Notes: a model not told the origin generated them from the sequence alone. Shown: positions 13,018 to 46,799, counted from the whole stretch's first letter. The stretch is 62,719 nucleotides of DNA, filler included, from 4 parts of 4 records of this genome joined end to end with filler, not necessarily neighbours in it, one strand, 5' to 3'. A program made the numbers and translations.

Positions 13018-14967
13018 TTGAATCGTAAATTATCCATATTTCTGATTTTTATACTGAGCGCTCCATTAGGAGTTTTTGCTCAGATTCCAGACATAGATAG
13101 CCTCAAAAACATTTTGCCTACTGCTAAGGGGAAGGTAAGATTGACTATTCTTAATGAATTGTCTACCCATCTTAGAGAAGTGGAGCAGCAAGTGGCATTT
13201 GACTATGCAACAGAGGCGGAAAAACTTGCTCAAAAGCTCAAAGATAAATCCGGTGAGGCTATAGCTAAAGAGAATATTGGATGGATTTACTATCGCAGAG
13301 GTCAATGGAAAAAGACTTTCACCTATTCCAAGGAAGCCTACGAACTTTCTATAGAGTCTAATAATCTAGAAGAAGCTTCTCGGGTGCTAAACAGTATGGG
13401 AGCGTTGTATTATGAGCAACAAAACTATTCAATGGCTATTGCTCAATTCAAGAAGGCCTATGAAATAAGTAGCAAGTCAGACGATTTCTACACGATGATC
13501 AGAAGTCTTAATAATATTGCTTTCAATTTTATTAAGTTAGATGAGCTTGATTCAGCCATGTATTATGCTTCGAAAGCTATAGAAACTAATGACAACGCAG
13601 GCTCTCCTTATTTGCTTTCTTTTTCAAACCGGGTTATTGGAGATGTTTATTTGAAGAATAACCATCTTGATTCTGCAGAGAGAATTTTTGAAAAAGCATA
13701 TGAAAATGCTGAAATCAGAGGGCTTACTTCCTTTAAAGCAAGTCTTTTGCATAGGCTAGGTGAGGCATACCTACTTAATGGAAAACCTGAACAAGCAAAG
13801 AAAGTCCTACTTGAAGGAGTTGAGCTATCCAGTCAGAATAATCTCCTTGATGAACTTTCAAAAAGCCATAAATATTTAGCGGAATATTATAGGCAATCAG
13901 GCAATTTTAAAGAAGCCTTCAAGGAGCAATCGCTATTCATTTCATTAAATGACTCGCTTGAAAATAAATCTACCAAAGATAGAATAGCCTTGATTCAGGG
14001 AATGTTCGAGGACGATTTGAATCAATCCGAACTTGAGCTTCTTACTGCTCAGTATGAAAATCAGACGAGTACTTTGGCCTTTAACCGAAAGATTGTATTT
14101 ATAGTGAGCGCTGGGTCTTTACTGATTTTTGCACTTCTGATATGGCTGTTTTACCTAAATCGGAATATTAGGAAATACAACTCAAGTTTGATTTTGCAAA
14201 AGCAACATATCCGTCTTCAAAACGAAGACTTAGGGACAAAATCAAAACAACTTGAGGGGATTAATCAGACTAAAAACAGACTTTTTTCCATTTTGGGACA
14301 TGACCTGAAAGGTCCTGTAGGACAAGTGAAATCTATCGTAGATCTATTGACAGAAGGGCATTTGACTCAGGAAGAATTTGACGAGCTGATTCAAAATTTA
14401 AAGACAGATGTTGATTCAGTGTACTTCACGCTAAATAACACCCTGAAGTGGTCACTTGCACAGATGGAGGGATTTAAGCTTCAGAAAGTCAACTTCAACC
14501 TCTCCGAACTGGTAAGGTCAAATATCAAACTGATCAAACCGCAGCTTAAAGAGAAATCAATTAAAGTAGATAATTCATGCTTACCTGAAGACCTGGAGAT
14601 TTATGCTGATAGGGATTTGATAGAGGTAGTGATCAGAAATATTTTGAATAATGCGGTGAAATTCTCAAAACCTGGCGATGTGATCCTACTTTCAGCAGAA
14701 ATAGAAAACAATATGATTACCTGGTGTGTGAAAGATCAAGGAGCTGGGATGCTGGAAGAGCAAATAGATGAGTTGCTCTCGGCAGATTATGTCATCACCA
14801 ATTCCAAGTTGGGCACCAAAATGGAAAAGGGTTCCGGTTTAGGGATTCAGATTTGTAAAGAATTTACCCGAATGAACGGGGGAGAGCTTAACATATTAAG
14901 CAAAGATGGAGAAGGAACAAAAGTGTGTGTGAGAATTCCTGCCAGTAAAATATTAGTCAGTAATTGA
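13018..14967 (+). CDS. TPR-repeat sensor histidine kinase
   Basis: Signal peptide, TPR repeats, TM helix, HDLKGP H-box, NNAVKF, DQGAG, GSGLG. Confidence 0.9.
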   Translation: MNRKLSIFLIFILSAPLGVFAQIPDIDSLKNILPTAKGKVRLTILNELSTHLREVEQQVAFDYATEAEKLAQKLKDKSGEAIAKENIGWIYYRRGQWKKTFTYSKEAYELSIESNNLEEASRVLNSMGALYYEQQNYSMAIAQFKKAYEISSKSDDFYTMIRSLNNIAFNFIKLDELDSAMYYASKAIETNDNAGSPYLLSFSNRVIGDVYLKNNHLDSAERIFEKAYENAEIRGLTSFKASLLHRLGEAYLLNGKPEQAKKVLLEGVELSSQNNLLDELSKSHKYLAEYYRQSGNFKEAFKEQSLFISLNDSLENKSTKDRIALIQGMFEDDLNQSELELLTAQYENQTSTLAFNRKIVFIVSAGSLLIFALLIWLFYLNRNIRKYNSSLILQKQHIRLQNEDLGTKSKQLEGINQTKNRLFSILGHDLKGPVGQVKSIVDLLTEGHLTQEEFDELIQNLKTDVDSVYFTLNNTLKWSLAQMEGFKLQKVNFNLSELVRSNIKLIKPQLKEKSIKVDNSCLPEDLEIYADRDLIEVVIRNILNNAVKFSKPGDVILLSAEIENNMITWCVKDQGAGMLEEQIDELLSADYVITNSKLGTKMEKGSGLGIQICKEFTRMNGGELNILSKDGEGTKVCVRIPASKILVSN

Positions 14968-15825
14968 AAGGTGAGCCTTAGCAAGGAATTCCTCTACCGG
15001 TATTTTGGCGCTAATTATTCCAAGTTCTTTCATGATCTCCATGGATTCGCTCAATTGAGTCTTAGAGATCTCCGAATCGGTTGCCCATACGGTCTGTTCA
15101 AACCATACTTTTACATCGATTTCATTCAACTCATAATTTCTGGATATATCTTCAATCGCAACATCGCTGTTTTGAAGTTCCTCTGAAGCTAGGTATACCA
15201 GATCTCTCAATTGAAATATTAATTCACCAAATTCCTCTAAAGCTTTATTTGTAGCAATAATAGCAAAGCATGGCCAAGGGCTCGGGACTTCACCAATTCG
15301 CTTCATTTGTTTGGAATCGACCCAAGGTTTAGTGGTGTATTTTTCCCATAGAAACATCTCTGGTTTTTCGGAAGTCATTACCTCCAAAGCACCAGGGAGA
15401 TTGTTAACTATTTTAAATTCCAATTTTTCAGAATTCCAGCCTTCACGTTTAGCTAGGACATAGCTCATTAACTGTGATCCAGATCCTATTCTGCTGATTA
15501 GAAATGTTGGTTCAATGATTTCATCTAAAGAATTTACAGATGAGTTTCCAGAAATATGAATTCCCCAGGTTAGGGGAGATTTGACATGAAGCCCAATCAT
15601 TTTTGATGGATTTCCAGCTTCAAAATCCTTCAAAAAGCTTTCCGTCAATACAATCGCAATATCTGTTTTGTCTTCCCTCAAATCCTTGTTCATCTGCCCA
15701 GAACCTCTGGATTCATCTGTCCATTGGAGTTTGATTCCCTGTTTTTCAAAAGGTTGAGCTGCTATTACTTTCTTCCAAGGAAAATTAAAATGCTCAGGAA
15801 CTCCGGTGATTCTTAGGGTTTTCAT
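14953..15825 (-). CDS. Substrate-binding-domain protein (NMT1/THI5-like PBP2 fold)
   Basis: GVPEHFN.PW, SR.GSGS..M, F.WE..TTKP, PWPCF motifs; start set at MKTLRI. Confidence 0.7.
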   Translation of the reverse strand: MKTLRITGVPEHFNFPWKKVIAAQPFEKQGIKLQWTDESRGSGQMNKDLREDKTDIAIVLTESFLKDFEAGNPSKMIGLHVKSPLTWGIHISGNSSVNSLDEIIEPTFLISRIGSGSQLMSYVLAKREGWNSEKLEFKIVNNLPGALEVMTSEKPEMFLWEKYTTKPWVDSKQMKRIGEVPSPWPCFAIIATNKALEEFGELIFQLRDLVYLASEELQNSDVAIEDISRNYELNEIDVKVWFEQTVWATDSEISKTQLSESMEIMKELGIISAKIPVEEFLAKAHLSITD

Positions 15826-15903
15826 AAGTGATGTTTTGACTAGTGTCAAAGGTAAGAACTGAAATTTAAAACAGTTTTCCATTCAAAGAAATTACCACCT
15901 CAT

Positions 15904-16920
15904 TTAGTCGTGTGCAGCCTTTTTGTCTGTGATTAAAAGATTACTTAGCCCTGCAAGGATTAATAGGGTTCCTGCCAGTAACATAGTATTAATTACAGCT
16001 TCTCCGAATAGTAATTTGTAGAGGAAATTCACTCCGCCAATCGCGGCTATGATCTGTGGAATAACGATGAACATGTTGAAAATACCCATGTAAATCCCCA
16101 TCTTCTTGGGGTCCACGGAGCTAGAAAGCATGGCATAAGGCATGGAAAGAATGCTAGCCCAAGAAATACCTACTAATGCAAAGCAAATATGAAGCATCCA
16201 TGGGGCAGTGATAAAATAGATCAGTATAAATCCACAACCACCAGCTACCAAACTGACCAGATGAAGTAGTTTTCGATTGATGAGGTATTTGCTAGTGAAT
16301 AGGGCTAGGAGCAAAGCAGCGAACATGGACACCAATCCATAAGTACCTAAATAATTCCCTACGCTATCGGCTGCATTATTATAGGCAGCGGAACTAGGAT
16401 CAGTAGCTCCAAATACATGTTCGGTAATTGCGGGAGTTGCAAAACTCCACATCGTAAAGAAGGCAAACCAGGAGAAAAACTGAACGACTCCGAGCTGTTT
16501 CATTACTGTTGGCATCGTTACAATGCTTTTTAGTACCTCCTTAAAGCCAATGATAATCCCACGGGTTTTAGCTTTTTCTGCTTCAAATTCTTCTAAGTCT
16601 TCCGGCGGATACTCTTCTGTTTTTAGAATTGTATACAAAATGGACGCAAACAGCACAAAAGCTCCGATTGCAAAAGCATATTTCACAGAATCAGGAACAA
16701 CACCTTCAGCAGCAGTATTTGGTACGCCCATTCTAGTCATTAACCACGGGAGATTGGAAGCCACCCAAGTGCCAGTTCCAATGATCAATGTTTGAACTAC
16801 AAAGCCATAAGACCTTTGATTGTCAGGTAGTTTGTCAGCTACTAAAGCACGGAAAGGTTCCATGCTGATATTGATGGAGGCATCTAAAATCCATAGGGCT
16901 CCGGCAGCCATCCATAGCGC
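15904..16920 (-). CDS. MFS sugar transporter (maltose/sucrose-type), 5' truncated
   Basis: LDASIN.SMEPFRA, QFFSW, G.YMGIFN.FIVIPQ. Confidence 0.85.
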   Translation of the reverse strand, partial: ALWMAAGALWILDASINISMEPFRALVADKLPDNQRSYGFVVQTLIIGTGTWVASNLPWLMTRMGVPNTAAEGVVPDSVKYAFAIGAFVLFASILYTILKTEEYPPEDLEEFEAEKAKTRGIIIGFKEVLKSIVTMPTVMKQLGVVQFFSWFAFFTMWSFATPAITEHVFGATDPSSAAYNNAADSVGNYLGTYGLVSMFAALLLALFTSKYLINRKLLHLVSLVAGGCGFILIYFITAPWMLHICFALVGISWASILSMPYAMLSSSVDPKKMGIYMGIFNMFIVIPQIIAAIGGVNFLYKLLFGEAVINTMLLAGTLLILAGLSNLLITDKKAAHD

Positions 16921-17875: not shown

Positions 17876-18136
17876 ATGAGAATATCCGTTGAACTTACGC
17901 TATCTCCGCTCCAGGATGATTTTGAGACCCCCGTCATTGCTTTTATCAAAAAGTTGCGCGACTCTGGGCTTACTGTTTTGGAGAATCCACTGAGTACACA
18001 GGTTTTTGGGGGTTATAATGAAGTAATGGAATTGCTCAATTCAGAAATAAAGGAAAGTTTTGAGAATTTGGACCACGTGGTGCTGACCATGAAAATGGTA
18101 AAATCCGACCGAAGCGAGTATGAACCCCATTTTTGA
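17876..18136 (+). CDS. Thiamine-binding protein / YkoF-like small protein
   Basis: SVEL...PL, I..L..SGL....PLST.V.G pattern. Confidence 0.7.
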   Translation: MRISVELTLSPLQDDFETPVIAFIKKLRDSGLTVLENPLSTQVFGGYNEVMELLNSEIKESFENLDHVVLTMKMVKSDRSEYEPHF

Positions 18137-18755
18137 TTTTTTTATTGGTCCCTATGAAGACCGTGAGTTCTCCCTCATTATTCTGGAAGCGACCGCTTTT
18201 TTCTTTGGAATTGCTAGTGTAGTCTATGCTAAAAAGGAAGATATTTTGGTGTATCCTACGGGTCTCGTCGCTACGGTGATTACTACCTATATCTTTTTGG
18301 TGGATAATCTTTTAGGAGATATGATGATGAATTTCTACTATTCCATTATGAGCATTTATGGATGGTGGAACTGGGCAAGACGAAGGGATGATAGAAAGCC
18401 AGTAGTGCATATTACAAGGACCAATAAGAAGGAGAAATGGGTCGGTGTTGGCTTTTTTCTCCTCACCATGTTGGTCACGTATGGAGTTTACAAAGCTTTT
18501 GGAGCGGATATAGGGCCTACAAACTACGTGGATATTTTTACATCAGGCATTTTTTTCACGGCAATGTGGTATATGGCCAACAAAAAGCTGGAAAACTGGA
18601 CCCTTTGGATATTGGGTGATTTAATTACCGTACCTTTGTACGCCTATAGGGGATGGGGTATGTTCTCTTTACAGTACCTCATTTTTACTGTTCTAGCTGT
18701 ACAGGGATATCTAGCATGGAAGAAAAACTTGGCCAAGAGCCCACAAACCTCATAA
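18120..18755 (+). CDS. pnuC: PnuC-family vitamin/riboside transporter
   Basis: Multi-TM; YGWWNW and K.LENW..WI..D motifs. Confidence 0.9.
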   Translation: MNPIFDFFIGPYEDREFSLIILEATAFFFGIASVVYAKKEDILVYPTGLVATVITTYIFLVDNLLGDMMMNFYYSIMSIYGWWNWARRRDDRKPVVHITRTNKKEKWVGVGFFLLTMLVTYGVYKAFGADIGPTNYVDIFTSGIFFTAMWYMANKKLENWTLWILGDLITVPLYAYRGWGMFSLQYLIFTVLAVQGYLAWKKNLAKSPQTS

Positions 18756-19297
18756 AAGTGGTCCTTTTTGGACCTGAATCCACAGGGAAGACCACCTTGT
18801 CCAAACAACTGGCGGAATACTACAAAACCGAATGGGTGCCCGAATATGCCCGTGAATACCTACAAGACAAATGGGACAGAGAACAAAAAACCTGCGAACC
18901 ACACGATTTGCTGCCTATTGCTTACGGACAAATGCGCCTAGAGAATCAATTGGCGAGAAAAGCAAATAAAATACTTATATGTGATACCGACCTTTTGGAG
19001 ACAAAGGTGTATTCCGAAGCGTATTACAATAGTACCTGTGACCCACTTTTGGAAGAATACGCCCTAAAAAACAGTTACGACCTCTACTTCCTGACCTATA
19101 TCGACACGCCTTGGGTAGCTGATGATCTTAGGGACAAACCGGATGAGAGAGAACGAATGTTTATGCATTTTAAGGAAGCTTTGGAGAATAATAACAGGAA
19201 ATTCGTTAATTTAAGGGGAGATAAAGCGTCAAGGCTTTCCACAGCAGTAGAACATATAGATAAACTTCTCCAAAAACATGATAGAATTAAGTCCTAA
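18716..19297 (+). CDS. NadR-type P-loop kinase domain (stand-alone)
   Basis: GPESTGKTT, EYAREY, CDT, W..D.LRD; no N-terminal NMNAT domain. Confidence 0.85.
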   Translation: MEEKLGQEPTNLIKVVLFGPESTGKTTLSKQLAEYYKTEWVPEYAREYLQDKWDREQKTCEPHDLLPIAYGQMRLENQLARKANKILICDTDLLETKVYSEAYYNSTCDPLLEEYALKNSYDLYFLTYIDTPWVADDLRDKPDERERMFMHFKEALENNNRKFVNLRGDKASRLSTAVEHIDKLLQKHDRIKS

Positions 19298-20816
19298 AGA
19301 CTTGGAACAACTGGACTCCAAAGGAATTTCCAAAGAAAAAGTAAATAATCAAATACAAACATTTAAAGAAGGCATCCCATTTGTGCAACTATCGCAAGCA
19401 GCGGTAGTGGGCAATGGAATACTTCGGTTCTCGGAAAAGGAGCAGTTGGATCTGCTTCAATATTTTGAGGATAATAGAAAGGAACTTGAACTATTAAAGT
19501 TTGTTCCAGCCTCCGGAGCGGCATCCCGTATGTTCAAGGCCATGTTCAATTTTTTGGACAGCTATGACCCATCAAAAGAAGAGCTATCCGAATACATAGA
19601 ACGAACAGGAGACCAGGATGCTAAAAAATTTACCGAGAATCTTTCCGACTTTCCCTTTTATGATTTGATCATGTCCAGAATCAAGGGCAAAGCCTCCAAC
19701 AAAGATGAGGAAGCCTATCTTTTTGTAAAGGAAATGTTGATGGAGAGCGGTCTTAATTATGGCTTTTATCCCAAAGGCCTTTTGCCTTTCCATAAATATG
19801 GTACGGAAACGGCAACCCCCTTCGAGGAGCATTTGAAAGAAGCCGCCCTCTATGCCAAGACCAAAGGCACCGCCAGTCTTCATTTTACCGTATCGGAACA
19901 GCATGATGAGATGTTTGCGAAAGAGGAAGCGACCGTGGGGCCAAAAATCTCCAAAAAAACAGATACTTCTTTCAATATTACCTATTCCAACCAAAAACCA
20001 TCCACGGATACCGTTGCAGTGGATATGGACAATAAGCCCTTCAAAAATAGTGATGGTTCCATCTTATTCCGTCCGGGAGGACATGGTGCCCTCATTGAGA
20101 ACCTGAACGACCAGGATGCAGATATTATCTTCATCAAGAATATAGATAATGTGGTCATCGATAAAAACTTGGAGACCGTATCAAACAGTAAAAAAATGTT
20201 GGCGGGTGTCCTTAAAAAAGTGCAGGACAAAGCGTTCGCCTATGCCAGGCTTTTGGACAAAGATGAAGTTTCCATTGAAAAAGCCGACGAGATCAAAGCG
20301 TTTTTGGAGAAAGACCTTAATGTACGTATGCCTAAGAATTATGATGATTTTGGAGTAGAGGAGCAAAAAACGATGTTGAAGGACAGAATCAACCGTCCCA
20401 TACGTATATGTGGCATGGTGAAAAATGAAGGTGAGCCCGGTGGCGGTCCGTTTTGGATAAAAGATGCACAAGGCAACATATCCCTTCAGATAATAGAGTC
20501 CGCCCAAATAGATATGGAGGATAAAGCCCAAGCGGCAATACTACAAAACTCTACACACTTTAACCCGGTAGATTTGGTATGCGGGGTACGTGACTACAAA
20601 GGCCAAAAGTTTGACCTCTTGGATTTTGTGGACACCAAACAAGGTTTTATTACCGGTAAAACCAAAGAGGGAAAGGAACTGAAGGCACTGGAACTTCCGG
20701 GATTATGGAACGGGGCTATGGCTTTCTGGAACACCATTTTTGTTGAGGTACCATTGGTGACCTTTAATCCGGTTAAAACGGTTAATGATCTTTTAAAACC
20801 AACCCACCAGGCATAA
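19278..20816 (+). CDS. DUF4301 family protein (UDP-sugar pyrophosphorylase-like motifs)
   Basis: KFVPASGAASRMFK, RPGGHGAL, FIKNIDN, GEPGGGP, FNPVKTVNDLL. Confidence 0.85.
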   Translation: MIELSPKDLEQLDSKGISKEKVNNQIQTFKEGIPFVQLSQAAVVGNGILRFSEKEQLDLLQYFEDNRKELELLKFVPASGAASRMFKAMFNFLDSYDPSKEELSEYIERTGDQDAKKFTENLSDFPFYDLIMSRIKGKASNKDEEAYLFVKEMLMESGLNYGFYPKGLLPFHKYGTETATPFEEHLKEAALYAKTKGTASLHFTVSEQHDEMFAKEEATVGPKISKKTDTSFNITYSNQKPSTDTVAVDMDNKPFKNSDGSILFRPGGHGALIENLNDQDADIIFIKNIDNVVIDKNLETVSNSKKMLAGVLKKVQDKAFAYARLLDKDEVSIEKADEIKAFLEKDLNVRMPKNYDDFGVEEQKTMLKDRINRPIRICGMVKNEGEPGGGPFWIKDAQGNISLQIIESAQIDMEDKAQAAILQNSTHFNPVDLVCGVRDYKGQKFDLLDFVDTKQGFITGKTKEGKELKALELPGLWNGAMAFWNTIFVEVPLVTFNPVKTVNDLLKPTHQA

Positions 20817-20838
20817 CTATTTAAAAAACAATTGACTA

Positions 20839-20870
20839 AGCCCGTTGCTGAAAAAGTAGCGGGTTTTTTT
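20839..20870 (+). terminator. Intrinsic terminator
   Basis: AGCCCGTTGCT/AGTAGCGGGTT hairpin plus T-tract. Confidence 0.8.
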
Positions 20871-21002
20871 GTGTTCAAATGTGACTTGGTTTTAAAAAAT
20901 GTGTCTAAAAAAACATAACCGGAATCATTTCCGGTGACATGATTAAATTTTTTGATAATCCTTGCGGGGTTGTCTTAACTAGGTTGGTTGATTTGGTAAG
21001 AT

Positions 21003-21030
21003 AGCCGTGCTTTATGTACGGCTTTCTTTT
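21003..21030 (+). terminator. Terminator-like hairpin with no ORF directly upstream
   Basis: AGCCGTGC-TTTAT-GTACGGCT followed by TTCTTTT. Confidence 0.6.
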
Positions 21031-21064
21031 CAATAATGTTCAAAAAAGATAGACAACGGCATAT

Positions 21065-21468: not shown

Positions 21469-21771
21469 ATGAAAAATTTAGCTTTAGCAACAGTACTATC
21501 ATTTGTAGGAATCACAGCATTTGCAAATGTTGAAACTCCAGAACTAGAAAATAACAGTGCAATCGAGATTGTAGTAGGAGATTTTGAAGAAATCAGCGTG
21601 TCTGACCTTCCTTCTGCTGTATCTAGCGCAGTAGAGTCCAACTACCCTACCGCTAAAATCGATAAAGCATACAAAAACGATAAGGACCAATATAAATTGG
21701 AACTTACCCTTGAAGACGGTACATCAGGAACTGTATATGCCGATGCTGAGGGGAACTGGATTGACATGTAA
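21469..21771 (+). CDS. Small secreted acidic protein (PepSY/BLIP-like repeat)
   Basis: Signal peptide; LP.AV......YP.A.I.KA...Y....G.W pattern. Confidence 0.8.
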   Translation: MKNLALATVLSFVGITAFANVETPELENNSAIEIVVGDFEEISVSDLPSAVSSAVESNYPTAKIDKAYKNDKDQYKLELTLEDGTSGTVYADAEGNWIDM

Positions 21772-21809
21772 TTAGATATATCACCCCACAATAGTTAGTT
21801 TGGTTGATG

Positions 21810-21840
21810 AAGGGCTGCAGTAATATGCAGCCCTTTTTTT
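21810..21840 (+). terminator. Intrinsic terminator
   Basis: AAGGGCTGCA/TGCAGCCCTT plus T-tract. Confidence 0.88.
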
Positions 21841-21906
21841 GTGATAATTTTATAAGAAAGCAATCATCTTTAAAAAGATATGGGACGTATATTAGGTAAC
21901 TGAATT

Positions 21907-23253
21907 ATGCCCAAAATCCTGATCATTGAAGACGATACTGCCTTCTGTCAAATGCTTCAAAAGTTTTTGACCAAGAACGGCTTTGATGTATCCATAGGTT
22001 TCTCCATAAAAGAAGCAGAGGAACATCTCGCATCATCTACTTTCGATTTAATATTGTCCGATGTAAGATTGCCCAAAGGAAACGGGGTTACTTTGCTCGC
22101 ACAGGTCAAACGCGATTCTCCAAAAACACAGGTCATTCTAATGACAGGCTATGCAGAGGTGAAAACCGCGGTAAACGCCATCAAAGAAGGTGCTTTCGAC
22201 TATATTTCCAAACCTTTTACACCGGAGGCAATACTTGGAGTGATAAAGGAAGCATTGAAAACAGAGGTCACTGAGACACAAATAGCTGTCAAATCCTCTA
22301 AAAAGGAACCAATAGAGGAAAAGAAGCCCGTTGGCTTTTTAAAAGGACAGGGAGAAAAATCCAAAAAACTTCAACAATATGTAGAGTTGGTCGCCCCCAC
22401 AAATATGTCTGTTTTGCTTACCGGGGAAAGCGGTACAGGAAAAGAGGTGACAGCAAACTCTATTCACTTGGCAAGTAAGAGGAGCAATAAACCTTTTGTG
22501 GCCGTGGATTGTGGGGCCATACCAAAAGAAATAGCCACAAGTGAGTTTTTTGGTCATGTTAAAGGTAGTTTTACAGGAGCTATAGATGATAAAAAAGGTC
22601 ATTTTGAAGCTGCAAATGGAGGTACGCTCTTTTTGGACGAGGTAGGGAATCTTTCATACGAACACCAAGTACAATTGCTCAGGGCCATTCAAGAACGTAA
22701 GATAAAACGTGTGGGGAGCACCCAAGAAATCCAAGTGGATATTCGAATCATAGCCGCCACAAACGAAAACCTTCTTGAAGCAGTCGAAGAAGGCGATTTT
22801 AGGGAAGATTTGTACCACCGACTCAATGAATTTTCCATAGAAGTACCATCGTTAAGGGACAGGCGGGAAGATATTCTCCTGTTTGCCGATTATTTTTTGG
22901 CCAAGGCCAATACCGAATTGGACAAAAATGTGCTTGAATTTTCCGAGGAAACCAAAAATATTCTACAGAAGTACGATTGGCCCGGGAATTTAAGAGAAAT
23001 GAAAAATGTGATCAAAAGGGCAGTTCTTTTCTCCCCAACGGAAACCATGTTTCCCAATGCATTGGCAGACGAGGTGGTCGATGGTGCCAATAAAGAGCAT
23101 GAAGTCAATTTCTCTAAATCCGATTTTGAAAAAGAAAGGATTTTGAGTGCATTAAAGCAAACCAACTTTAACAAGAGCAAGGCAGCAAAACTCTTGCAGG
23201 TTACCCGAAAGACACTTTACAACAAAATCAATCAATATCAATTGGATGTTTAG
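21907..23253 (+). CDS. Sigma54-dependent response regulator (NtrC family: REC-AAA-Fis HTH)
   Basis: REC domain, GESGTGKE, GSFTGA, LFLDE, WPGNLRE, C-terminal HTH. Confidence 0.95.
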   Translation: MPKILIIEDDTAFCQMLQKFLTKNGFDVSIGFSIKEAEEHLASSTFDLILSDVRLPKGNGVTLLAQVKRDSPKTQVILMTGYAEVKTAVNAIKEGAFDYISKPFTPEAILGVIKEALKTEVTETQIAVKSSKKEPIEEKKPVGFLKGQGEKSKKLQQYVELVAPTNMSVLLTGESGTGKEVTANSIHLASKRSNKPFVAVDCGAIPKEIATSEFFGHVKGSFTGAIDDKKGHFEAANGGTLFLDEVGNLSYEHQVQLLRAIQERKIKRVGSTQEIQVDIRIIAATNENLLEAVEEGDFREDLYHRLNEFSIEVPSLRDRREDILLFADYFLAKANTELDKNVLEFSEETKNILQKYDWPGNLREMKNVIKRAVLFSPTETMFPNALADEVVDGANKEHEVNFSKSDFEKERILSALKQTNFNKSKAAKLLQVTRKTLYNKINQYQLDV

Positions 23254-25666
23254 CCAGATATGCTTGGATTTCAACATCAAGATTGTTCAGGACTGTTTGA
23301 AGTTCTGTTAAAATTTCAAATACCTTTTCTCCTGTTGCATCACCGGAAAGATGTTCCAAAACCTCTAATAATTGGATGGCATCATGTACTTCCAATTGCC
23401 TGAACATGGGTAGCATTTTGTGGGATATGGCCTTAATATCGGTATAATCCTGATTGCCGATAGCGGAAAACATAAGCTCCATATTTTTGAGGGAATTATC
23501 CAAAAAGACCTGCAAAACTTCTTTGACCGACTCAAAACTATCCAGAAATGCGGAAATATTTCGAATAGTAAACAAGGAAGAAGCTGTGTCCTTGATTTCA
23601 CTTTTGGAACTCATATTATTGACGAACGACAAAGCTTTTAATAGGTCTGTTGCAGAGAAAGGTTTTTGCAGAACATCGGCAAAACCTGCTTCCAAATATT
23701 CGGATTTATTTCCAATCTGTTGACCGGTCATGGCTATCACAGGCTTTGAATAACCTGTATTATTGACTTTTTCCAACACGGAATAACCATCGATAGAAGG
23801 CATTTGAATATCCGTGATAACCGCATCGAACTGATGGATTTCGGAAATGTGAAAATCATCAAAATTTGTAAAAGTTGCGGTTTTTACCTGGTTGAGTTTG
23901 CAGACTTCTGATATAAGGCTCAACATATTTTCGTCATCATCGATTACCAAAATGGATAATTCATCAGGCTTTACAATTGGAGTTTCGGAATTGTCCTCTT
24001 TGATTTCGATATTGGAAAACTCAACTGGAATCTCAACTGTAAAAGTACTCCCCTTGTTTACTTCGCTGTTCAAGCTTAAAGTACCATCCAATAATTCGGT
24101 AAGTTTTTTGGAAATGGTCAGGCCAAGGCCATACCCAATTTGTTTTTTTTCTGTGGATTCCCCTGCTTGGATAAACTCTTGGAAAATGGCTTCTTGTTTT
24201 TCGGCAGGTATTCCAATTCCTGTATCCTCAACCTCGATTTTCGCCCATTTAGATTTATTTTTTTCAACTACCGTGGCGGAGACCTTTACATTCCCTTCAT
24301 CGGTAAATTTAAAGGCGTTGCCAATCAGGTTGGATAATATTTGTCGTATTCTAAATGGATCGTTTATAATGGGTGTTTTTAAATCTTCGGCGATTTCCAA
24401 TTGCAAGGACACTCCTTTTTTGGATTGCATCTCCTTAAAATCTGTTGCCGTGTCCTCTATTAACTGTGACAGCAAAAAAGGAACTTTGTCCAATTTAATT
24501 TTTCCGGCCTCTAATTTTGAAAAGTCCAAAAGGTCGTTCACCAGTTTTTCTACATAATCGGAAGAAGATTGAATCTTTTTTAAGTAATTCGACTGTTCAG
24601 AATTTAATCCGCTTTGCCCTATCAAATCGGAATAACCACTAATGGTATTTAAAGGGGTACGCAGGTCGTGGCTTACGGTTGATATGAGCTGCTCCCTACT
24701 TTTTAAAAGCGATTCCGAATATTTTTTAGCCCTTTCGAGACGTTCCCGATATTCTTGGACTTTCCAATAATCTTTGGAAATCATAAAAGTGAATACAATT
24801 ACGATAATCAACCCTAAGATTACCGCTCCACCGGCCAAACGTGTGCTTTTTTTTAGTGCTTCTTCCTGCTGAAGAGCATCTAGATATGTGTTCTGGGCCA
24901 TTTCTCGTTCAAAATCCGATAAAATCCCCCTCATTTTTTGGGAAAGTTCAAGGTCTGTGCGATAAATTTCGAGCTCCTTTTGAAGCACTGTCCTCTCGGC
25001 GGAGGCAGTTTCGGCGATGGCTTTGTTTATGATGGATTTGGAAACCTCTAAAATGGAATCGATATTGTTGGCGTCCGCACCCCCATCTGAGTTCGGGATA
25101 TTCTTATTAAGAATGGCCACAGATTTTCGTATGGACTCTTTTGCTTCTGGGGACAATTTGTCAAAATTAGGAGCAAAGGTTTCCGGAGTAATTCTTCCCA
25201 TTCCCACTTCCATATCATGAAAAGCCTTTAATACTGAATCCAATGAAGTATTGTTTTCGTTCCGTACCTTAAGTTTTCGCAATTCAGCATTGTTGAACAC
25301 CTTTTGGCTCAGTAATTCTTGAACACTGTCCAATTCAGAACTTAGGGAACTGTAATCTGATCTTACCAACGGTTTTAAAGAATCGATGAAGGCCGTAATA
25401 GAATCCACTTTTTGCGCATAGGATTTTAGATCCTCTGGTTTTTTGGTCTGGAGGGCCAATTTGGATAAGTTTTCGGCATCGTAGAGTTGTGTGAGTAATC
25501 TATTGGTCTTCAAGAGCTTTTCATTACTGTCGTCCTGGTTTTTGGATGAGGCATAGCTTTTGAATTCATTATAGATGAAAAATGCAGCGAGGGATGCAAG
25601 AATACCCAGCGTAACATAGCTCATTACAATTTTTAGGGTAAACCTTTTTTTTGATTTTGGGTGCAT
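23228..25666 (-). CDS. Hybrid sensor histidine kinase (HisKA-HATPase-REC-HPt-like)
   Basis: 2 TM helices, SHDLRTPL, NL.GNA.KFT, DTGIG, GLGL, DIQMP, SHKM. Confidence 0.93.
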   Translation of the reverse strand: MHPKSKKRFTLKIVMSYVTLGILASLAAFFIYNEFKSYASSKNQDDSNEKLLKTNRLLTQLYDAENLSKLALQTKKPEDLKSYAQKVDSITAFIDSLKPLVRSDYSSLSSELDSVQELLSQKVFNNAELRKLKVRNENNTSLDSVLKAFHDMEVGMGRITPETFAPNFDKLSPEAKESIRKSVAILNKNIPNSDGGADANNIDSILEVSKSIINKAIAETASAERTVLQKELEIYRTDLELSQKMRGILSDFEREMAQNTYLDALQQEEALKKSTRLAGGAVILGLIIVIVFTFMISKDYWKVQEYRERLERAKKYSESLLKSREQLISTVSHDLRTPLNTISGYSDLIGQSGLNSEQSNYLKKIQSSSDYVEKLVNDLLDFSKLEAGKIKLDKVPFLLSQLIEDTATDFKEMQSKKGVSLQLEIAEDLKTPIINDPFRIRQILSNLIGNAFKFTDEGNVKVSATVVEKNKSKWAKIEVEDTGIGIPAEKQEAIFQEFIQAGESTEKKQIGYGLGLTISKKLTELLDGTLSLNSEVNKGSTFTVEIPVEFSNIEIKEDNSETPIVKPDELSILVIDDDENMLSLISEVCKLNQVKTATFTNFDDFHISEIHQFDAVITDIQMPSIDGYSVLEKVNNTGYSKPVIAMTGQQIGNKSEYLEAGFADVLQKPFSATDLLKALSFVNNMSSKSEIKDTASSLFTIRNISAFLDSFESVKEVLQVFLDNSLKNMELMFSAIGNQDYTDIKAISHKMLPMFRQLEVHDAIQLLEVLEHLSGDATGEKVFEILTELQTVLNNLDVEIQAYLAKHPIDID

Positions 25667-25764: not shown

Positions 25765-25766
25765 CG

Positions 25767-25846
25767 GCATCTCAAAGGGGTGCTTTTAACAAAAGGCTGA
25801 GATTATACCCAATGAACCTGGGCGGGTAATGCTGCCAAGGGAATGC
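25767..25846 (+). ncRNA. TPP riboswitch aptamer
   Basis: GGGGTGC...GCTGAGATTATACCC...GAACCTG...GGTAATGC...AGGGA; upstream of a TonB receptor. Confidence 0.93.
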
Positions 25847-25942
25847 GCTGGCCGCATCTTGGAATTTCTATGTTTCTTTTAGAAACAAAAATCAATTTTT
25901 AACAAAGAATAATGACCCCTTTTATTCGTAACATTTTTACGA

Positions 25943-28192
25943 ATGAAACTCTATTCAATTATTCAAAAAAGAGCCTTTGCTGACTCGTTGCGACCGTCGA
26001 AAAAAACTAAAGGACATCGCACCAAAATGCTATTTGCAAGTACGGCCCTGTTTGGCCTGGCACTTTCCGTAAGTGCGCAAGAAGAACCTATTGACAGCCT
26101 TGAGGGAACAAAAGTCGTTCTGGATGAAGTTCTAGTACAATCCATAAGGATTACCAAGGATTTCCCCATTACATTTTCCGATTTGGACAAGGTGGAACTG
26201 GCCCCCCGAAACCTCGGTCAGGACATCCCCATTCTCATGAACTTTATGCCGGCCGTGGTGACCACATCCGATGCCGGGGCGGGTATCGGTTACACCAGTA
26301 TGAGGGTTCGTGGTAGCGATGCTACAAGAATCAACCTAACTATAAACGGTATTCCATACAACGATGCGGAATCACATGGTAGTTTTTGGGTGAATATGCC
26401 TGATTTTGCTTCTTCAACACAAAGTTTGCAGTTGCAGAGAGGGGTTGGAACATCTACCAATGGTTCCGGTGCCTTTGGGGCAAGTTTGAATGTGCTTACC
26501 GATGCCTTTTCAGAGGAGGCCTATGCCAAGATCTCATCTTCGGTGGGAAGTTTCAGTACCCTGCGCAGCAACGTTAAGTTTAGCACGGGATTGATGAACG
26601 ACCATTTTGAATTTTCTGGACGTTTATCACGGGTAAATTCAGATGGTTACGTGGACCGGGCATCTTCCGAATTGGATGGTTATTTTCTACAAGGAACCTA
26701 TAAAGATGACAATACCTTGGTAAAAGCGTTGCTTTTTGGAGGACACGAAATTACCTATCAGGCATGGAATGGAATAACCGTAGATCAGCTGGAAGATAAC
26801 CGTACCTACAACTCGGCCGGGGAATATACCGATGATAACGGAAATACTCAATACTATGAAAATGAGGTCGACAATTATAAGCAAGACCATTTTCAATTGC
26901 ACTGGTACGAGACCTGGAACTCCGCATGGAACACGCATTTGGCCGTTCACTATACAAGAGGCCGGGGCTTTTTTGAGCAATATAGGGAAGAAGACGATTT
27001 TGTTACCTATGGTCTGGAACCTTTCACAGTAAATGGAGAATTGGTTGAAACTACCGATTTGATTCGCCGACGTTGGTTGGACAATGATTTTTACGGAACC
27101 GTGTTTTCTGCTACCTACAACAGCGAAAACCTTGAACTTATTATGGGCGGAGGTTATAATGAATACAAAGGAGATCACTTTGGCGAAATCATATGGGCAG
27201 AATATGCACGCAATAGTGAAATTCGTGATAGGTATTATGACGATAATTCCACCAAAACGGATTTAAACTTCTACACAAAGGCCAATTATCAGCTTACGGA
27301 CCAGTGGTCCTTGTTCGGAGATGTGCAATATCGTGGTGTTGGTTATCAGGCCAATGGCGAAGATACAGGCCTAGTGGACGATACGTTCAATTTTTTCAAT
27401 CCAAAGGCAGGTGTCACTTTCGATTTGAACCGGAACAATAACTTCTATTTTTCGTATGCGCGAGCCAACAGGGAACCCAACCGCAACGATTACGAAAACG
27501 GAAGCCCAAAACCTGAAAAACTCAACGATTTTGAGCTGGGCTGGAGATACGTTTCTCCAAGTTTTCAGTTGAACACCAACGTATACTACATGCGCTATAA
27601 AGATCAGTTGGTTTTAACGGGAGGTTTGAGCGATGTAGGGGCCCCGTTAAGGTCCAACGTTGGTGACAGTTATCGTTTAGGATTGGAAATCGATGCCAAT
27701 GTTAACCTGTCCAGTACATTTAAATGGAGACCGAACATTGCTTTGAGCGATAACAGGAACCTTGATTATTTCTTTGAGCGGGATGGAGAGCTTCAAGATT
27801 TGGGAAATACAAATATTGCCTTCTCCCCAAAATTGATTGCGGGCAACATTATCACCTACCAACCCAACAACAACTTTCAAGTTTCGTTGCTTTCAAAATT
27901 TGTGGGCAAACAATACATGGGCAATATTGATTCTGAAACCTCTGTTTTGGATAGCTATACCCAAACGGATTTCAATATTCAGTACACCATCAACATGAAC
28001 TCTTTTATAAAGAGTATTGAACTTTCCGGTTTGGTGAACAATATTTTTGATGCCGATATTGTCTCCAACGGATATTTCTACACGTTTGATGATGACTATT
28101 CCAATCCTGGAACCATTACCACAATTGAAGGTGCCGGTTACTACCCACAAGCAGGAATCAATTTTCTTGTAGGAGCGACCATCAACTTTTAA
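25943..28192 (+). CDS. TonB-dependent receptor, probably thiamine uptake
   Basis: LDEV TonB-box-like segment, plug (RVRG, NGIP.ND, QRG), beta-barrel with terminal Phe; TPP riboswitch upstream. Confidence 0.9.
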   Translation: MKLYSIIQKRAFADSLRPSKKTKGHRTKMLFASTALFGLALSVSAQEEPIDSLEGTKVVLDEVLVQSIRITKDFPITFSDLDKVELAPRNLGQDIPILMNFMPAVVTTSDAGAGIGYTSMRVRGSDATRINLTINGIPYNDAESHGSFWVNMPDFASSTQSLQLQRGVGTSTNGSGAFGASLNVLTDAFSEEAYAKISSSVGSFSTLRSNVKFSTGLMNDHFEFSGRLSRVNSDGYVDRASSELDGYFLQGTYKDDNTLVKALLFGGHEITYQAWNGITVDQLEDNRTYNSAGEYTDDNGNTQYYENEVDNYKQDHFQLHWYETWNSAWNTHLAVHYTRGRGFFEQYREEDDFVTYGLEPFTVNGELVETTDLIRRRWLDNDFYGTVFSATYNSENLELIMGGGYNEYKGDHFGEIIWAEYARNSEIRDRYYDDNSTKTDLNFYTKANYQLTDQWSLFGDVQYRGVGYQANGEDTGLVDDTFNFFNPKAGVTFDLNRNNNFYFSYARANREPNRNDYENGSPKPEKLNDFELGWRYVSPSFQLNTNVYYMRYKDQLVLTGGLSDVGAPLRSNVGDSYRLGLEIDANVNLSSTFKWRPNIALSDNRNLDYFFERDGELQDLGNTNIAFSPKLIAGNIITYQPNNNFQVSLLSKFVGKQYMGNIDSETSVLDSYTQTDFNIQYTINMNSFIKSIELSGLVNNIFDADIVSNGYFYTFDDDYSNPGTITTIEGAGYYPQAGINFLVGATINF

Positions 28193-28230
28193 GATGTAAA
28201 AAAGAACGGGATTCTGTAAATTTATCCATA

Positions 28231-29232
28231 ATGACAGAATCCCGTTTTAATTTTTCAGAAGAAAAGCCTCTACGCTGGGGCGTTATTGGTTGTGGTGCCG
28301 TAACCGAAATAAAAAGCGTGCCAGCCTATAAGATTACATCCGGTTTTGAGGTTGCAATGGTAATGCGGCGCAATCCGGAAAAGGCAGAGGATTATGCGAA
28401 AAGACACCGGATTCCTCATTGGACGACCGATGCTGATGAGGTAATCGACAATCCAAATATTGATGCAGTTTATATTGCTACACCTCCCGATACCCATAAA
28501 TTTTACGCTTTAAAAGTAGCTGCAGCCGGGAAACCTTGTTGTATCGAAAAACCCATGGCCCCTACTTATAATGACAGTTTGGCCATTTATGAAGCGTTTC
28601 GGAATAGGGATGTTCCTCTTTTTATAGCCTATTATCGCCGTTCACTGCCCAGATTTCTAAAAATAAAACAATGGTTGGATGATGGTCTGATCGGTGAAGT
28701 CCGCCATATCCATTGGCAAAAGACCAAACCGCCCAGTGATGTGGATTTAAGCAAGGCATATAATTGGCGTACAGATGCCGCTATCGCCAGAGGAGGGTAT
28801 TTTGATGATTTGGCCAGCCATGGCCTGGATCTGTTCAACTTTCTGTTGGGTGATATTGTGGAAGCGAATGGTACAACGACCAATCAACTAGGGCTATATG
28901 CTGCTTTTGATGCAGTAGCGGCCCATTGGATGCATGATGGAGGGATAACAGGTACGGGCAGTTGGAACTTTGGCACCCATGACCGAACGGACAAGGTTGA
29001 AATATTAGGTTCCGAAGGCAGTATTCGCTTTGCCGTTCTGGATGAGGCTCCCATTCAACTGAACAATGCATCAGGAAGTCAAACATTAGAAATTGTACAC
29101 CCCCAACACATTCAAGAATTTCATGTGGAGAATATTAAACGCCACCTTCTTGGCAAGTCAGTACATCCATCAACGGGAAAAACGGGACTACACACCAGTT
29201 GGGTAATGGAGAAAATTCTGGGAACACTTTAA
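28231..29232 (+). CDS. Gfo/Idh/MocA oxidoreductase
   Basis: GVIGCG, YIATPP..H, EKPM. Confidence 0.9.
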   Translation: MTESRFNFSEEKPLRWGVIGCGAVTEIKSVPAYKITSGFEVAMVMRRNPEKAEDYAKRHRIPHWTTDADEVIDNPNIDAVYIATPPDTHKFYALKVAAAGKPCCIEKPMAPTYNDSLAIYEAFRNRDVPLFIAYYRRSLPRFLKIKQWLDDGLIGEVRHIHWQKTKPPSDVDLSKAYNWRTDAAIARGGYFDDLASHGLDLFNFLLGDIVEANGTTTNQLGLYAAFDAVAAHWMHDGGITGTGSWNFGTHDRTDKVEILGSEGSIRFAVLDEAPIQLNNASGSQTLEIVHPQHIQEFHVENIKRHLLGKSVHPSTGKTGLHTSWVMEKILGTL

Positions 29233-40611: not shown

Positions 40612-40711
40612 NNNNNNNNNNNNNNNNNNNNNNNNNNNNNNNNNNNNNNNNNNNNTTAATTAATTAANNNNNNNNNNNNNNNNNNNNNNNNNNNNNNNNN
40701 NNNNNNNNNNN
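40612..40711. other. Artificial contig linker
   Basis: N44-TTAATTAATTAA-N44. Confidence 0.97.
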
Positions 40712-40867
40712 TTTGAAGTTGTTGCTGCAGCTCATTCGACGGGCCGCTTCACGAGCCGCTTGAACCGCGGGAAGAAGCAACCCAACTAGGACGCCAATGA
40801 TGGCGATGACAACCAGCAGTTCCACCAAAGTAAAACCGTGCTGGTTCGCGCGAGATGTATTGCGCAT
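40712..40867 (-). CDS. DUF1559 prepilin-type N-terminal cleavage protein (planctomycete), 3' truncated
   Basis: [40 protein letters not shown]. Confidence 0.93.
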
Positions 40868-44095: not shown

Positions 44096-44228
44096 CGAAG
44101 CGTCACGATTGTGTGATGGAAGGTTGCGTTGACGTGCGATGGTCGCCGGGTGGATACTGCGGGTCGCTCAAGCGTGTATGCCGGTGGTCCGTTCTGATTG
44201 GGACCGTGACGCGAGCATCGATTCATCA

Positions 44229-44669
44229 ATGGATGGGAACGAGAACATGGAAGCGATCATCGATCGTCGATTCGAATTGTTGCAGTTGCTGTTGGAGTTA
44301 ACCGTTCAACAGGAGGCCGCGATTTCGGACGGGCACATGAACGAGCTGATGCGAGTGCTGAGTCAGAAGCAGCGTGCTGTGGAGCAATTGGTGCAGGCGT
44401 CGGAGCAGCTCAAGACCGAGCGGGCCCGATTGGGCGAGGCGCATCGTGTGTCGGAGGAACATCGGCAACGAAACGCGAAGTGCGATGAAATGCACCGCGA
44501 ATTGATGGCTCGTGAGCAGGCGAGCGAAGAGATGCTGACCAGCAGTCGCGATGAAGTAGCGGCTCAGTTGCAGCAGAACGATGGTTCGCGACGAGCCGCT
44601 CAAGGTTACGGTCAGCAGGCGAATCGTGGCGAGTCGTCTGGCGGTAGCAAATTGGATTTGTCGCAGTAG
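44229..44669 (+). CDS. FlgN-like flagellar export chaperone
   Basis: L..L...Q...I.......L......KQ coiled coil; C-terminal Y.......LD; start uncertain (44229 or 44247). Confidence 0.55.
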   Translation: MDGNENMEAIIDRRFELLQLLLELTVQQEAAISDGHMNELMRVLSQKQRAVEQLVQASEQLKTERARLGEAHRVSEEHRQRNAKCDEMHRELMAREQASEEMLTSSRDEVAAQLQQNDGSRRAAQGYGQQANRGESSGGSKLDLSQ

Positions 44670-44792
44670 CGAAACGCCGATCTGTATTGGGCAGAGGCGA
44701 GTTGCGATTGACTGGTTTGAGCGATGCTGGGTGAGAGTCTTGTTTACTGGGCCACTTTTTTACTGGGCCATTCGCGTTTGCGTCAGCGCATT

Positions 44793-44824
44793 AAAAAACC
44801 GCCATCAAGGGTCTCAATGGCGGT
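44793..44824 (-). terminator. Intrinsic terminator of the cold-shock gene
   Basis: ACCGCCAT/ATGGCGGT plus T-tract on the minus strand. Confidence 0.78.
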
Positions 44825-44852
44825 GTCAATTTTATCTTCGAGATCAAGCCGT

Positions 44853-45050
44853 TCAGGCAGGAGTCACGTTTTCGGCACAAGGTCCTTTGGGACCGCGACC
44901 TTCAGTGTAAGTGACTTTTTGACCTTCTTGCAGTTCGTCGTAACTCGCGCCTTCGACATTCGTGCAGTGGAAGAACAAGTCTTTCGGCCCTCCAGTGTCG
45001 ATGAAACCGAAGCCTTTGTCGGTGAGCCGTTTGATTGTACCTTCTGCCAT
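44853..45050 (-). CDS. Cold-shock protein
   Basis: KGFGFI RNP1, DLFFH RNP2, KGPCAENV. Confidence 0.95.
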   Translation of the reverse strand: MAEGTIKRLTDKGFGFIDTGGPKDLFFHCTNVEGASYDELQEGQKVTYTEGRGPKGPCAENVTPA

Positions 45051-45242
45051 TCTTCTAATTCCTTCGTGTAAACCGTGATGTTTCCCGCGCCGAGTGCGTG
45101 AGCTATACCACCACGAGGGGGACTATAACAGATTCCCGTTGGTTGTGGTGGGGTTCTAGTCTTCAGTTTTCACAGAAAAATTGAAAAGAGCTATTTTTAG
45201 CGGGGTTTATGGCCATTCTGGCGGCGGGGTAGGCCGAATCCG

Positions 45243-46366: not shown

Positions 46367-46799
46367 GGTGCCGCTTTCCGAAGTGGGGCAAATGAGGTGG
46401 CCGGAGCCGTTGGATGCGTCAACGAAGGGAAGTGCCTTCGAAGAAGTTTGCGTCGCGAATGGCTTGAGAGTGCGATTGCTACGCATCTTGGCATCGTAGC
46501 GTTCGGCCTGATTATGGGATCCAAAATTCGCGATGGAAAGTTTGGTCGCGGCGAATGGAAGAGGTGATGACCAAAGCCGCCTAGTTTGCCGTGTTTGCCT
46601 GGGCGTCCATTTGTCAGTGCAGAAATGCGGCTTGGCAGCGTTTGCTCGCCAAAAACGTTGGAATTGCAGGGCTGCACCCGGTTTGGGACGGGTTTCAAAA
46701 GCGGGCTCGATCCAAGCCGGACTGATTCCCTATACTTCCTGGCTCACTCAATTCGCGAGGACGCCTCGCCTTCGCTCCATTCATATCGCACGCACGCTG

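Follow-up and report, generated by a model that had tools for sequence, protein, structure and literature searches.

A marine flavobacterial operon for a Pnu facilitator, a NadR-type kinase, and a UGPase/UAP-like DUF4301 protein: a candidate uptake-and-trap system for a vitamin B1-type compound

The DNA analyzed here (the window) is a stretch of 62,719 nt made up of 4 parts of 4 records joined with filler, and its region from 17876 to 20816 carries a four-gene operon of a marine flavobacterium. The operon encodes a small MTH1187/YkoF-type protein, a Pnu-family facilitator, a NadR-type kinase, and a DUF4301 protein predicted to be a nucleotidyltransferase. Our leading but tentative reading, which we would put at somewhat less than even, is that the operon is an uptake-and-trap system for a vitamin B1-type compound in which the DUF4301 protein couples a nucleoside monophosphate to the phosphate ester so formed or to a related one. 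The genes and the terminator are as follows.

17876 to 18136, plus strand: MTH1187/YkoF-type gene (Pfam Thiamine_BP, DUF77), 86 amino acids (aa), the first gene of the operon
18120 to 18755, plus strand: Pnu-family facilitator gene (PnuC/PnuT type), 211 aa, with a WTLWILGD motif
18716 to 19297, plus strand: P-loop kinase gene of the NadR ribosylnicotinamide kinase (RNK) type, 193 aa from a conserved MEEKL start; the open reading frame (ORF) opens at 18653
19278 to 20816, plus strand: DUF4301 gene, 512 aa, predicted nucleotidyltransferase of the UGPase/UAP fold
20838 to 20866, plus strand: intrinsic-terminator-like hairpin, with a 12-bp stem containing 5 G-C pairs and then a T run

From the gene structure, folds, linkage, fusions, neighborhood, and pathway gaps observed, we infer the compound carried, the two reactions, and any resulting product. 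A TonB-dependent receptor encoded behind a thiamine pyrophosphate (TPP)-like riboswitch would provide the outer-membrane step, and the compound would diffuse across the inner membrane through the Pnu facilitator. The NadR-type kinase would phosphorylate and so trap it, most likely by converting thiamine to thiamine monophosphate (ThMP), which ThiL would then turn into the cofactor. In the cytoplasm, the imported compound is also the probable ligand of the YkoF/MTH1187-type protein. The DUF4301 protein would catalyze the reaction NTP + X-P → NDP-X + PPi. As the DUF4301 gene overlaps the kinase gene here and the two are fused in many relatives, X-P would most simply be what the kinase makes or something closely derived from it.

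The earlier note had described four overlapping, apparently coupled genes ending in one terminator, and this was confirmed. Reading the junctions off the sequence placed the pnu ATG (18120) 17 nt inside the YkoF-type gene, the kinase ATG (18716) 40 nt inside pnu, and the DUF4301 ATG (19278) 20 nt inside the kinase gene, all on the plus strand and followed by the hairpin listed above. The kinase start at 18716 was conserved across the loci compared. Over the 20-nt overlap, the kinase and DUF4301 genes of the window are separated by one reading frame. This gene order was found again in other members of the coded family to which the window belongs, f1, indicating that the arrangement goes beyond chance. 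The operon is preceded by a phosphopantetheinyl transferase gene, whose end is 40 nt away. In sequence data from RNA libraries, the whole four-gene stretch was present in one 9.5-kb contig (X14), which may be DNA, and metatranscriptome contigs (X16 and X17) were found with pieces of all four genes, two of them bridging the 18120 and 18716 junctions. Since contigs cannot prove a single transcript, the RNA contigs are only weak evidence of transcription. A second hairpin with a T-rich tail was observed at 21003 to 21023, within a weak match (33 bits against a gathering score of 81) to the Rfam small RNA (sRNA) JA04 at 20957 to 21040 on the plus strand; it is probably another terminator-like structure.

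The small first protein scored 23.6 bits against PF01910, just under the cut-off of 24.9, and the same family was matched by all 11 of its 11 orthologues at an E value of ≤0.01 (best, 3.7e-8). An AlphaFold2 (AF2) model (pLDDT of 85.6) had a ferredoxin-like beta-alpha-beta-beta-alpha-beta arrangement. The top Foldseek matches of this model were 2ibo (SP2199), 1vk8 (TM0486), 2eky (MJ1052), 1lxn (MTH1187), and YkoF (1s7h and 1sbr), with 1sbr being the YkoF thiamin complex. On the basis of the family matches and the predicted fold, the protein is placed in the MTH1187/YkoF family, and a ligand-binding role is predicted for it.

The Pnu protein matched PF04973 at 173 bits (7e-51) and aligned to PnuC 4QTN (3e-5), with WTLWILGD in place of WALWIVVN. 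WxxW(x)3D/N is described as the ligand motif of Pnu transporters, and the Asp of this motif is described as being required for binding in the thiamine transporter PnuT (PMC5749112). The binding-site motif of the window Pnu has the D known from PnuT. Against the TIGR01528 model, which is named for the nicotinamide riboside (NR) transporter PnuC, the window Pnu scored 90.2 bits versus 96.1 bits for a Pnu encoded directly behind a TPP-like riboswitch; as a riboswitch-controlled Pnu scores just as well on this model, the NR transporter name carries no weight. In a tree of Pnu proteins, the window Pnu fell into a starred clade (98) together with the riboswitch-controlled Pnu, and three NadR-linked PnuC proteins fell outside it. 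The nearest genome, G001, has a second Pnu paralogue (L103, 5730 to 6485, minus strand) that is 30% identical to that of the window and lies directly behind a TPP-like riboswitch of its own (46.1 bits), followed by an acyl-CoA-dehydrogenase-like ORF.

The kinase matched PF13521 (AAA_28) at 6e-45, with a conserved Walker A motif, GPESTGKT, and a conserved DTD motif, and its PDB matches were the RNK domains of 9x6f, 8x7f, and 1lw7. NadR models matched it over their kinase part only (positions 233 to 409 of 411 in NF005988 and 164 to 320 of 325 in TIGR01526) and far below their cut-offs. These partial matches bore out the view that the kinase has no nicotinamide mononucleotide (NMN) adenylyltransferase (NMNAT; CTP_transf_like) domain. 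True NadR elsewhere in the phylum shows PF01467 (CTP_transf_like plus AAA_28) and is encoded beside PnuC, and in the kinase and Pnu trees the true-NadR kinases and their Pnu partners lie outside the clades of the window proteins. The kinase tree mirrored taxonomy, the NadR branches were long, and the tree does not discriminate between substrates. A second AAA_28 paralogue present in genomes of the family was unrelated to the window kinase by tblastn and was dropped.

The genomic context probably ties the Pnu protein and the kinase to vitamin B1 rather than to an NAD precursor. Two elements of this context lie downstream of the operon in the window.

25766 to 25859, plus strand: TPP-riboswitch-like element with a shortened P3 stem (RF00059, 45.9 bits, E value of 1.2e-6, gathering score of 54.3)
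25943 to 28192, plus strand: TonB-dependent outer-membrane receptor gene, OMthi-like by position (PF00593 and PF07715)

In the alignment of the riboswitch-like element, CUGAGA and the P4/P5 arm were kept. The interval between the operon and this element (21469 to 25666) contains a PepSY-like gene, a sigma-54 response regulator gene, and a histidine kinase gene, and the receptor gene is followed by a GFO/IDH/MocA sugar-dehydrogenase-like gene, the element and these two genes lying within 25766 to 29232.

Recurrence of this neighborhood was examined in a phylum sample of 301 genomes, in which genomes, loci, and families are coded (G, L, and f). In 18 of 20 f1 genomes, DUF4301 was followed on its own strand by a TPP(-like) riboswitch and a TonB receptor gene, and the distance from DUF4301 to the riboswitch was 58 to 1,114 nt in 14 of these genomes and ∼5 kb in 4, including the nearest genome. 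At eight further loci, from four other coded families, the kinase gene was immediately followed by a TPP(-like) riboswitch and the gene for an orthologous receptor: f11 (G200, G216, and G136), f6 (G144, G072, and G208), f4 (G180), and f13 (G156). The riboswitch scored above the gathering score in G216 (62.8 bits), G156 (61.4), G144 (58.6), and G136 (57.5) and below it in G072 (51.5), G200 (40.4), G180 (39.8), and G208 (36.5). A riboswitch of 37.3 bits also follows the kinase gene in G192, an f1 genome without DUF4301. No Pnu gene was found next to the kinase gene by tblastn in G144, G072, or G208, and the Pfam Pnu matches of G144 were far off on the contig. Receptor relatives with 26 to 55% identity were encoded behind TPP(-like) riboswitches beside the kinase at L071, L072, L088, and L095 to L101. 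Overall, a TPP(-like) riboswitch and receptor gene came shortly after the Pnu-kinase core, or after the kinase alone, in five coded families. In 13 of 14 f1 loci, the spacer of ∼470 nt between DUF4301 and the riboswitch (L032, L033, L036, L038, and L040 to L048) holds an ORF of 133 to 135 aa with a GGQ motif (ArfB/RF-1-domain-like), which is not at this place in the window.

Gaps in the thiamine pathway were consistent with a role for such a kinase. Thiamine pyrophosphokinase (TPK) was detected in 11 of 34 genomes, all of one genus, and ThiL in 34 of 34. Within f1, TPK (PF04263) was present in all 11 genomes of genus g2 and in none of the 12 other genomes, and it was not found in G001. It is to this TPK-bearing genus that all three f1 loci without the kinase belong. 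An Escherichia coli-type ThiK over the cut-off was detected in 0 of 5 genomes. In flavobacteria and relatives that lack TPK and ThiK, the NMNAT-less kinase encoded beside a TPP riboswitch and receptor looks like the missing thiamine kinase.

These data also bear on a route to NAD that the earlier note had raised, in which PnuC would import NR, the kinase would produce NMN, and DUF4301 would be a non-orthologous NMN adenylyltransferase. The best solved relatives of the kinase are NadR RNK domains, some kinase-DUF4301 fusions are called nicotinamide riboside kinase by JGI, and the architecture mirrors the NMNAT-RNK fusion of NadR; NMN is moreover endogenous, which would explain the occurrence of DUF4301 without the kinase. 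One Pnu-kinase pair, in a genome of family f3 (L080, 5319 to 9242, plus strand), precedes genes for Sua5/YciO and an NAD-dependent DNA ligase, and this was the sole NAD-flavored context seen. However, true NadR and PnuC exist in the phylum and both fall outside the clades of the window proteins, the model names fail to separate NR from thiamine transporters, and the recurring context is a TPP riboswitch, not NAD. PncC (CinA) was present in 80 of 80 genomes, with no anticorrelation, so that NMN recycling already has a route and leaves no gap for an NMNAT. A UGPase-like SNQ motif in DUF4301, described below, also argues against this route. NMN adenylyltransferase activity for NR salvage was therefore the least favored of the roles proposed in that note, given the riboswitch/receptor pairs in five families, the TPK and ThiK gaps with ThiL present, and the universal PncC, and we regard it as unlikely.

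The DUF4301 protein matched PF14134 at 747.2 bits (cut-off, 27) over its full length (positions 2 to 507 of 507). Its match to the UDPGP family (PF01704) was restricted to residues 270 to 299 and, at 17.4 bits (E value of 0.0019), was under the gathering score of 22 bits. In an alignment set of 93 diverse relatives (41 to 52% identity), UDPGP was matched at an E value of ≤0.01 by 17 members (best, 1.4e-6), and no other Pfam family recurred. An AF2 model of high confidence (pLDDT of 96.7; pTM of 0.94) gave 90 Foldseek matches in the PDB at an E value of ≤1e-3; among the matches listed, all were UGPase or UAP. The best was human UGPase 3r3i (6.5e-11), and the TM score was 0.51 with AfUAP1 (6tn3). 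Sequence searches of the PDB with the single protein and with a 93-sequence profile gave nothing at an E value of ≤10, and a search of the ESM Atlas gave no usable match. Prediction of a complex of DUF4301 with the kinase gave a score of 0.00, which is no verdict, and was not used either way. Taken together, the model, the structural matches, and the UDPGP matches among relatives uphold the proposal that DUF4301 has a UDPGP fold, and the conclusion stands that the protein, as modeled, folds like eukaryote-type UGPase/UAP.

The six motifs quoted in support of that proposal were all present in the translation (PASGAASRMF, RPGGHG, FIKNIDN, KNEGEPGGG, HFNP, and FNPVKTVNDLL) and fell on invariant or near-invariant columns among the 93 members. 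Invariant residues were S79, G80, R84, and M85; G268, H269, and G270; N288 and N291; and K500. We take the motifs to be equivalent to GGxGTxM, PxGHG, NxDN, and the lysine of PVK, and these presumed equivalences are aligned over residues 270 to 299 alone. The UGPase-like SNQ motif was also kept, with Q239 invariant; in UGPase this motif presumably contacts uracil. Thiamine phosphate, a sugar-1-phosphate, and NMN are the candidate substrates.

Genomic linkage was counted at 20 extended f1 loci and at 20 loci outside f1, with a reach of 6 kb for the latter. PF14134 was found in 50 of the 301 genomes (20 of the 23 f1 genomes and 30 outside f1) and was absent from 251. A Pnu gene adjoined DUF4301 in all 20 f1 loci, the kinase gene lay between them in 17, and the YkoF-type gene was present in 9. 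Fusions provided a second line of evidence. Among the matches listed, 118 of 120 longer kinase relatives were kinase-DUF4301 fusions, under many Flavobacteriaceae genus names (Flagellimonas, Croceitalea, Maribacter, Robiginitalea, Arenibacter, and others); both domains were present in 24 of the best 120 DUF4301 proteins, and a single continuous kinase-DUF4301 frame of 733 to 800 aa was observed in 8 of 20 f1 genomes. A different fusion, of the kinase to an aldose-1-epimerase domain, accounted for 88 of 120 proteins listed, under Hymenobacter names (P0367 to P0460). Its epimerase domain matched the galactose mutarotase-related enzyme 3dcd at 2e-57, and in G156 such a fusion (L088, 5063 to 6508, minus strand) is encoded between pnu and the TPP riboswitch/receptor pair.

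The proposed linkage of DUF4301 with pnu and the kinase gene consequently held within f1 and in the fusions but failed outside f1, where neither Pnu nor kinase was detected within 6 kb of DUF4301 at any of the 20 loci. Similarly, the idea that DUF4301 acts on the kinase product fits the fold, the linkage, and the fusions but not the confinement of linkage to one family or the constancy of DUF4301 where the kinase is missing. With respect to the latter, 94 columns were conserved at the level of at least 95% in both kinase-linked and unlinked lineages, and only 2 columns were group specific.

Several of these observations count against an uptake-and-trap system for a vitamin B1-type compound. 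The active-site columns of DUF4301 are identical with or without a linked kinase, and as the protein is unchanged in lineages without the kinase, its substrate must also arise inside cells lacking such a kinase. Besides the absence of Pnu and kinase genes near DUF4301 outside f1, clustering of the neighbors at those 20 loci revealed no conserved partner. Even within f1, the phosphopantetheinyl transferase gene was syntenic in 19 of 20 loci, and conserved adjacency within one family hence proves little. The trees and phyletic patterns were built on related genomes and so reflect few independent events. The TPP-like element of the window does not reach its gathering score and lies 4.95 kb beyond the operon; an Rfam search of the whole window at the gathering threshold gave nothing, and no riboswitch was found ahead of the operon, the Rfam matches around it being sRNA matches at chance level. 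As the pnu and kinase genes are always upstream of the riboswitch, they are not under its control. The second, riboswitch-controlled Pnu of G001 means that the Pnu of the operon may carry something else. In the genus that has TPK, 8 of 11 genomes retain the kinase-DUF4301 fusion, and the two fusion partners of the kinase are both sugar-type enzymes, which fits a sugar better than thiamine. Finally, we know of no physiological need for a nucleotide-thiamine conjugate.

Some of the same data would be expected if DUF4301 were a passenger with a housekeeping role of its own, such as that of a UDP-sugar pyrophosphorylase, in a plain Pnu-kinase vitamin trap with no sequential catalysis. The protein occurs in 30 genomes outside f1, with no Pnu or kinase gene nearby in the 20 loci examined, and the near absence of group-specific columns is also in keeping with an independent function. 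Three f1 genomes keep the YkoF/Pnu-kinase genes without DUF4301 (G192, in the order YkoF-Pnu-kinase-riboswitch-receptor, and G056 and G224, with variants of that order), and three f1 loci, all in the TPK-bearing genus g2, keep Pnu-DUF4301 without the kinase. Furthermore, a database protein, P0360, has RF-1 fused to the kinase; this accidental-looking fusion to the neighboring ArfB-like gene indicates that fusions do arise in this tightly packed gene string. A passenger role accords poorly, however, with retention of the kinase-DUF4301 fusion under many Flavobacteriaceae genus names and with the 20-nt overlap of the unfused genes. In addition, the kinase-nucleotidyltransferase fusions known to us (NadR, RibF, FKP, and HldE) all run consecutive steps. 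We give the passenger explanation a low but appreciable probability, roughly one half of that of the vitamin B1 reading.

Sugar salvage, along an Isselbacher-like route, was assigned a similarly low probability. Here the Pnu protein, SWEET-like in fold, would import a sugar, the kinase would phosphorylate it, and DUF4301 would produce a UDP-sugar, with the fused mutarotase of Hymenobacter supplying the kinase with the correct anomer. This explanation draws on UGPase and UAP being the closest structures of DUF4301, on UDPGP being the sole recurring Pfam family (17 of 93 relatives), on the kinase-epimerase fusions (88 of the 120 proteins listed), and on the constancy of DUF4301 without the kinase, as expected if an endogenous sugar-1-phosphate were the usual substrate. 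Two independent fusions of the kinase to sugar-anomer enzymes keep it alive. A role as UDP-sugar pyrophosphorylase may also be vacant, as neither GalU over the NCBIfam cut-off nor a true PF01704 gene was detected in 80 of 80 Bacteroidota genomes, with or without DUF4301; weak PF01704 matches in G216 and G030 fell inside the DUF4301 genes themselves. However, the vacancy is shared by DUF4301-negative genomes (251 of 301 lack DUF4301), and as the 30 of these that were searched also had no GalU, the argument does not discriminate. The source of UDP-glucose in these 80 genomes was not obvious from the GalU and PF01704 searches. The known site of action of NadR-type kinases is a riboside 5'-OH, and we know neither of a precedent for an anomeric sugar kinase with the NadR-type fold nor of a Pnu transporter for a sugar. 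Sugar salvage also leaves the recurring TPP riboswitch/receptor neighbor and the YkoF-type gene unexplained, and G156, which has the epimerase fusion, has no DUF4301.

Returning to the vitamin B1 reading, its most specific form would make DUF4301 a thiamine-phosphate nucleotidyltransferase that converts ThMP or thiamine diphosphate (ThDP) plus NTP to a conjugate of the adenosine thiamine diphosphate or triphosphate (AThDP/AThTP) type. We consider this form improbable. The enzymes making nucleotide-thiamine conjugates are described as never having been purified to identity, and AThDP synthesis as not having been shown in vitro (PMC8615392). If DUF4301 does act on a thiamine phosphate, a gene family for nucleotide-thiamine compounds, and their enzymology, would be at hand, and the NadR-type kinase would be a new class of thiamine kinase if the conjugate reading were true. 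Action on a sugar-1-phosphate would instead define a new salvage route, with a bearing on the origin of UDP-sugars where no GalU was found. DUF4301 is a large family without an assigned function (2971 clusters at 50% identity with an E value of ≤1e-3), for which a full-text literature search gave a single paper with a mention, and the overlap in the operon together with recurrent fusion and linkage to a kinase and a vitamin-type transporter reduces the candidates for its substrate to a few. In marine bacteria, traffic in vitamin B1 is an ecologically limiting factor.

Other parts of the window showed features of separate interest. Just upstream of the operon region, at 14953 to 16911 on the minus strand, is a cytoplasmic-looking Ca3427-like gene of the periplasmic-binding-protein fold (PF22384, with a weak SsuA-family match), which adjoins a short MFS gene (335 aa, GPH/sucrose-symporter-like). 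Near 40.7 kb (40660 to 40790, and onward to 62719), the G+C content rises from ∼0.40 to ∼0.57 within some 300 bases, and an OEP (outer-membrane efflux) ORF of only 189 aa ends at this point. The high-G+C part encodes CysS, a chemotaxis receptor, and TPR and BamB-like proteins, and a 4-kb sample of it (43000 to 47000) had no match in the nearest genome, G001. The jump has the appearance of a chimeric join in the assembly or of a block of foreign DNA.

Among known systems, the most similar is that of Bacteroides, in which OMthi (BT2390), pnuT (BT2396), and tnr3 (BT2397) are associated with TPP riboswitches, and the window shares with it, as described there, three components in one neighborhood: a Pnu facilitator, a cytoplasmic trapping kinase, and a TonB receptor whose gene follows a TPP(-like) riboswitch (PMC5613172). 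In contrast to the Bacteroides set, the putative trapping enzyme of the window is a NadR-RNK-type P-loop kinase, not a thiamine pyrophosphokinase, the riboswitch comes after the pnu and kinase genes and does not control them, and a YkoF-type gene and DUF4301 are added. At the level of titles and abstracts, no description was found of a NadR-type thiamine kinase or of a flavobacterial PnuT system. Closest in architecture is NR salvage by NadR and PnuC in Haemophilus influenzae, E. coli, and Lactococcus lactis (1lw7 and 6gye; described in PMC7221760). Both systems have a Pnu protein and an RNK-type kinase that is physically coupled to a nucleotidyltransferase; in the window, however, there is no NMNAT domain, the predicted transferase is of the UDPGP fold and C-terminal to the kinase, and the context is a TPP riboswitch. 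With eukaryote-type UDPGP enzymes (UGPase 3r3i, 2icx, and 5nzj; UAP1 6tn3 and 1vm8), modeled DUF4301 shares the three-part fold (Foldseek E values of 1e-9 to 6.5e-11; TM scores of 0.42 to 0.51), and its GHG...NxDN stretch matches the family HMM locally. It differs from them in being only 10 to 14% identical, in having a Pfam score below the cut-off, and in an NTP loop that reads ASGAASRM instead of GGxGTxM. RibF, FKP of Bacteroides, and HldE phosphorylate and then nucleotidylate in one polypeptide or operon, and the system proposed here would resemble them in logic, with both of its domains being of different folds.

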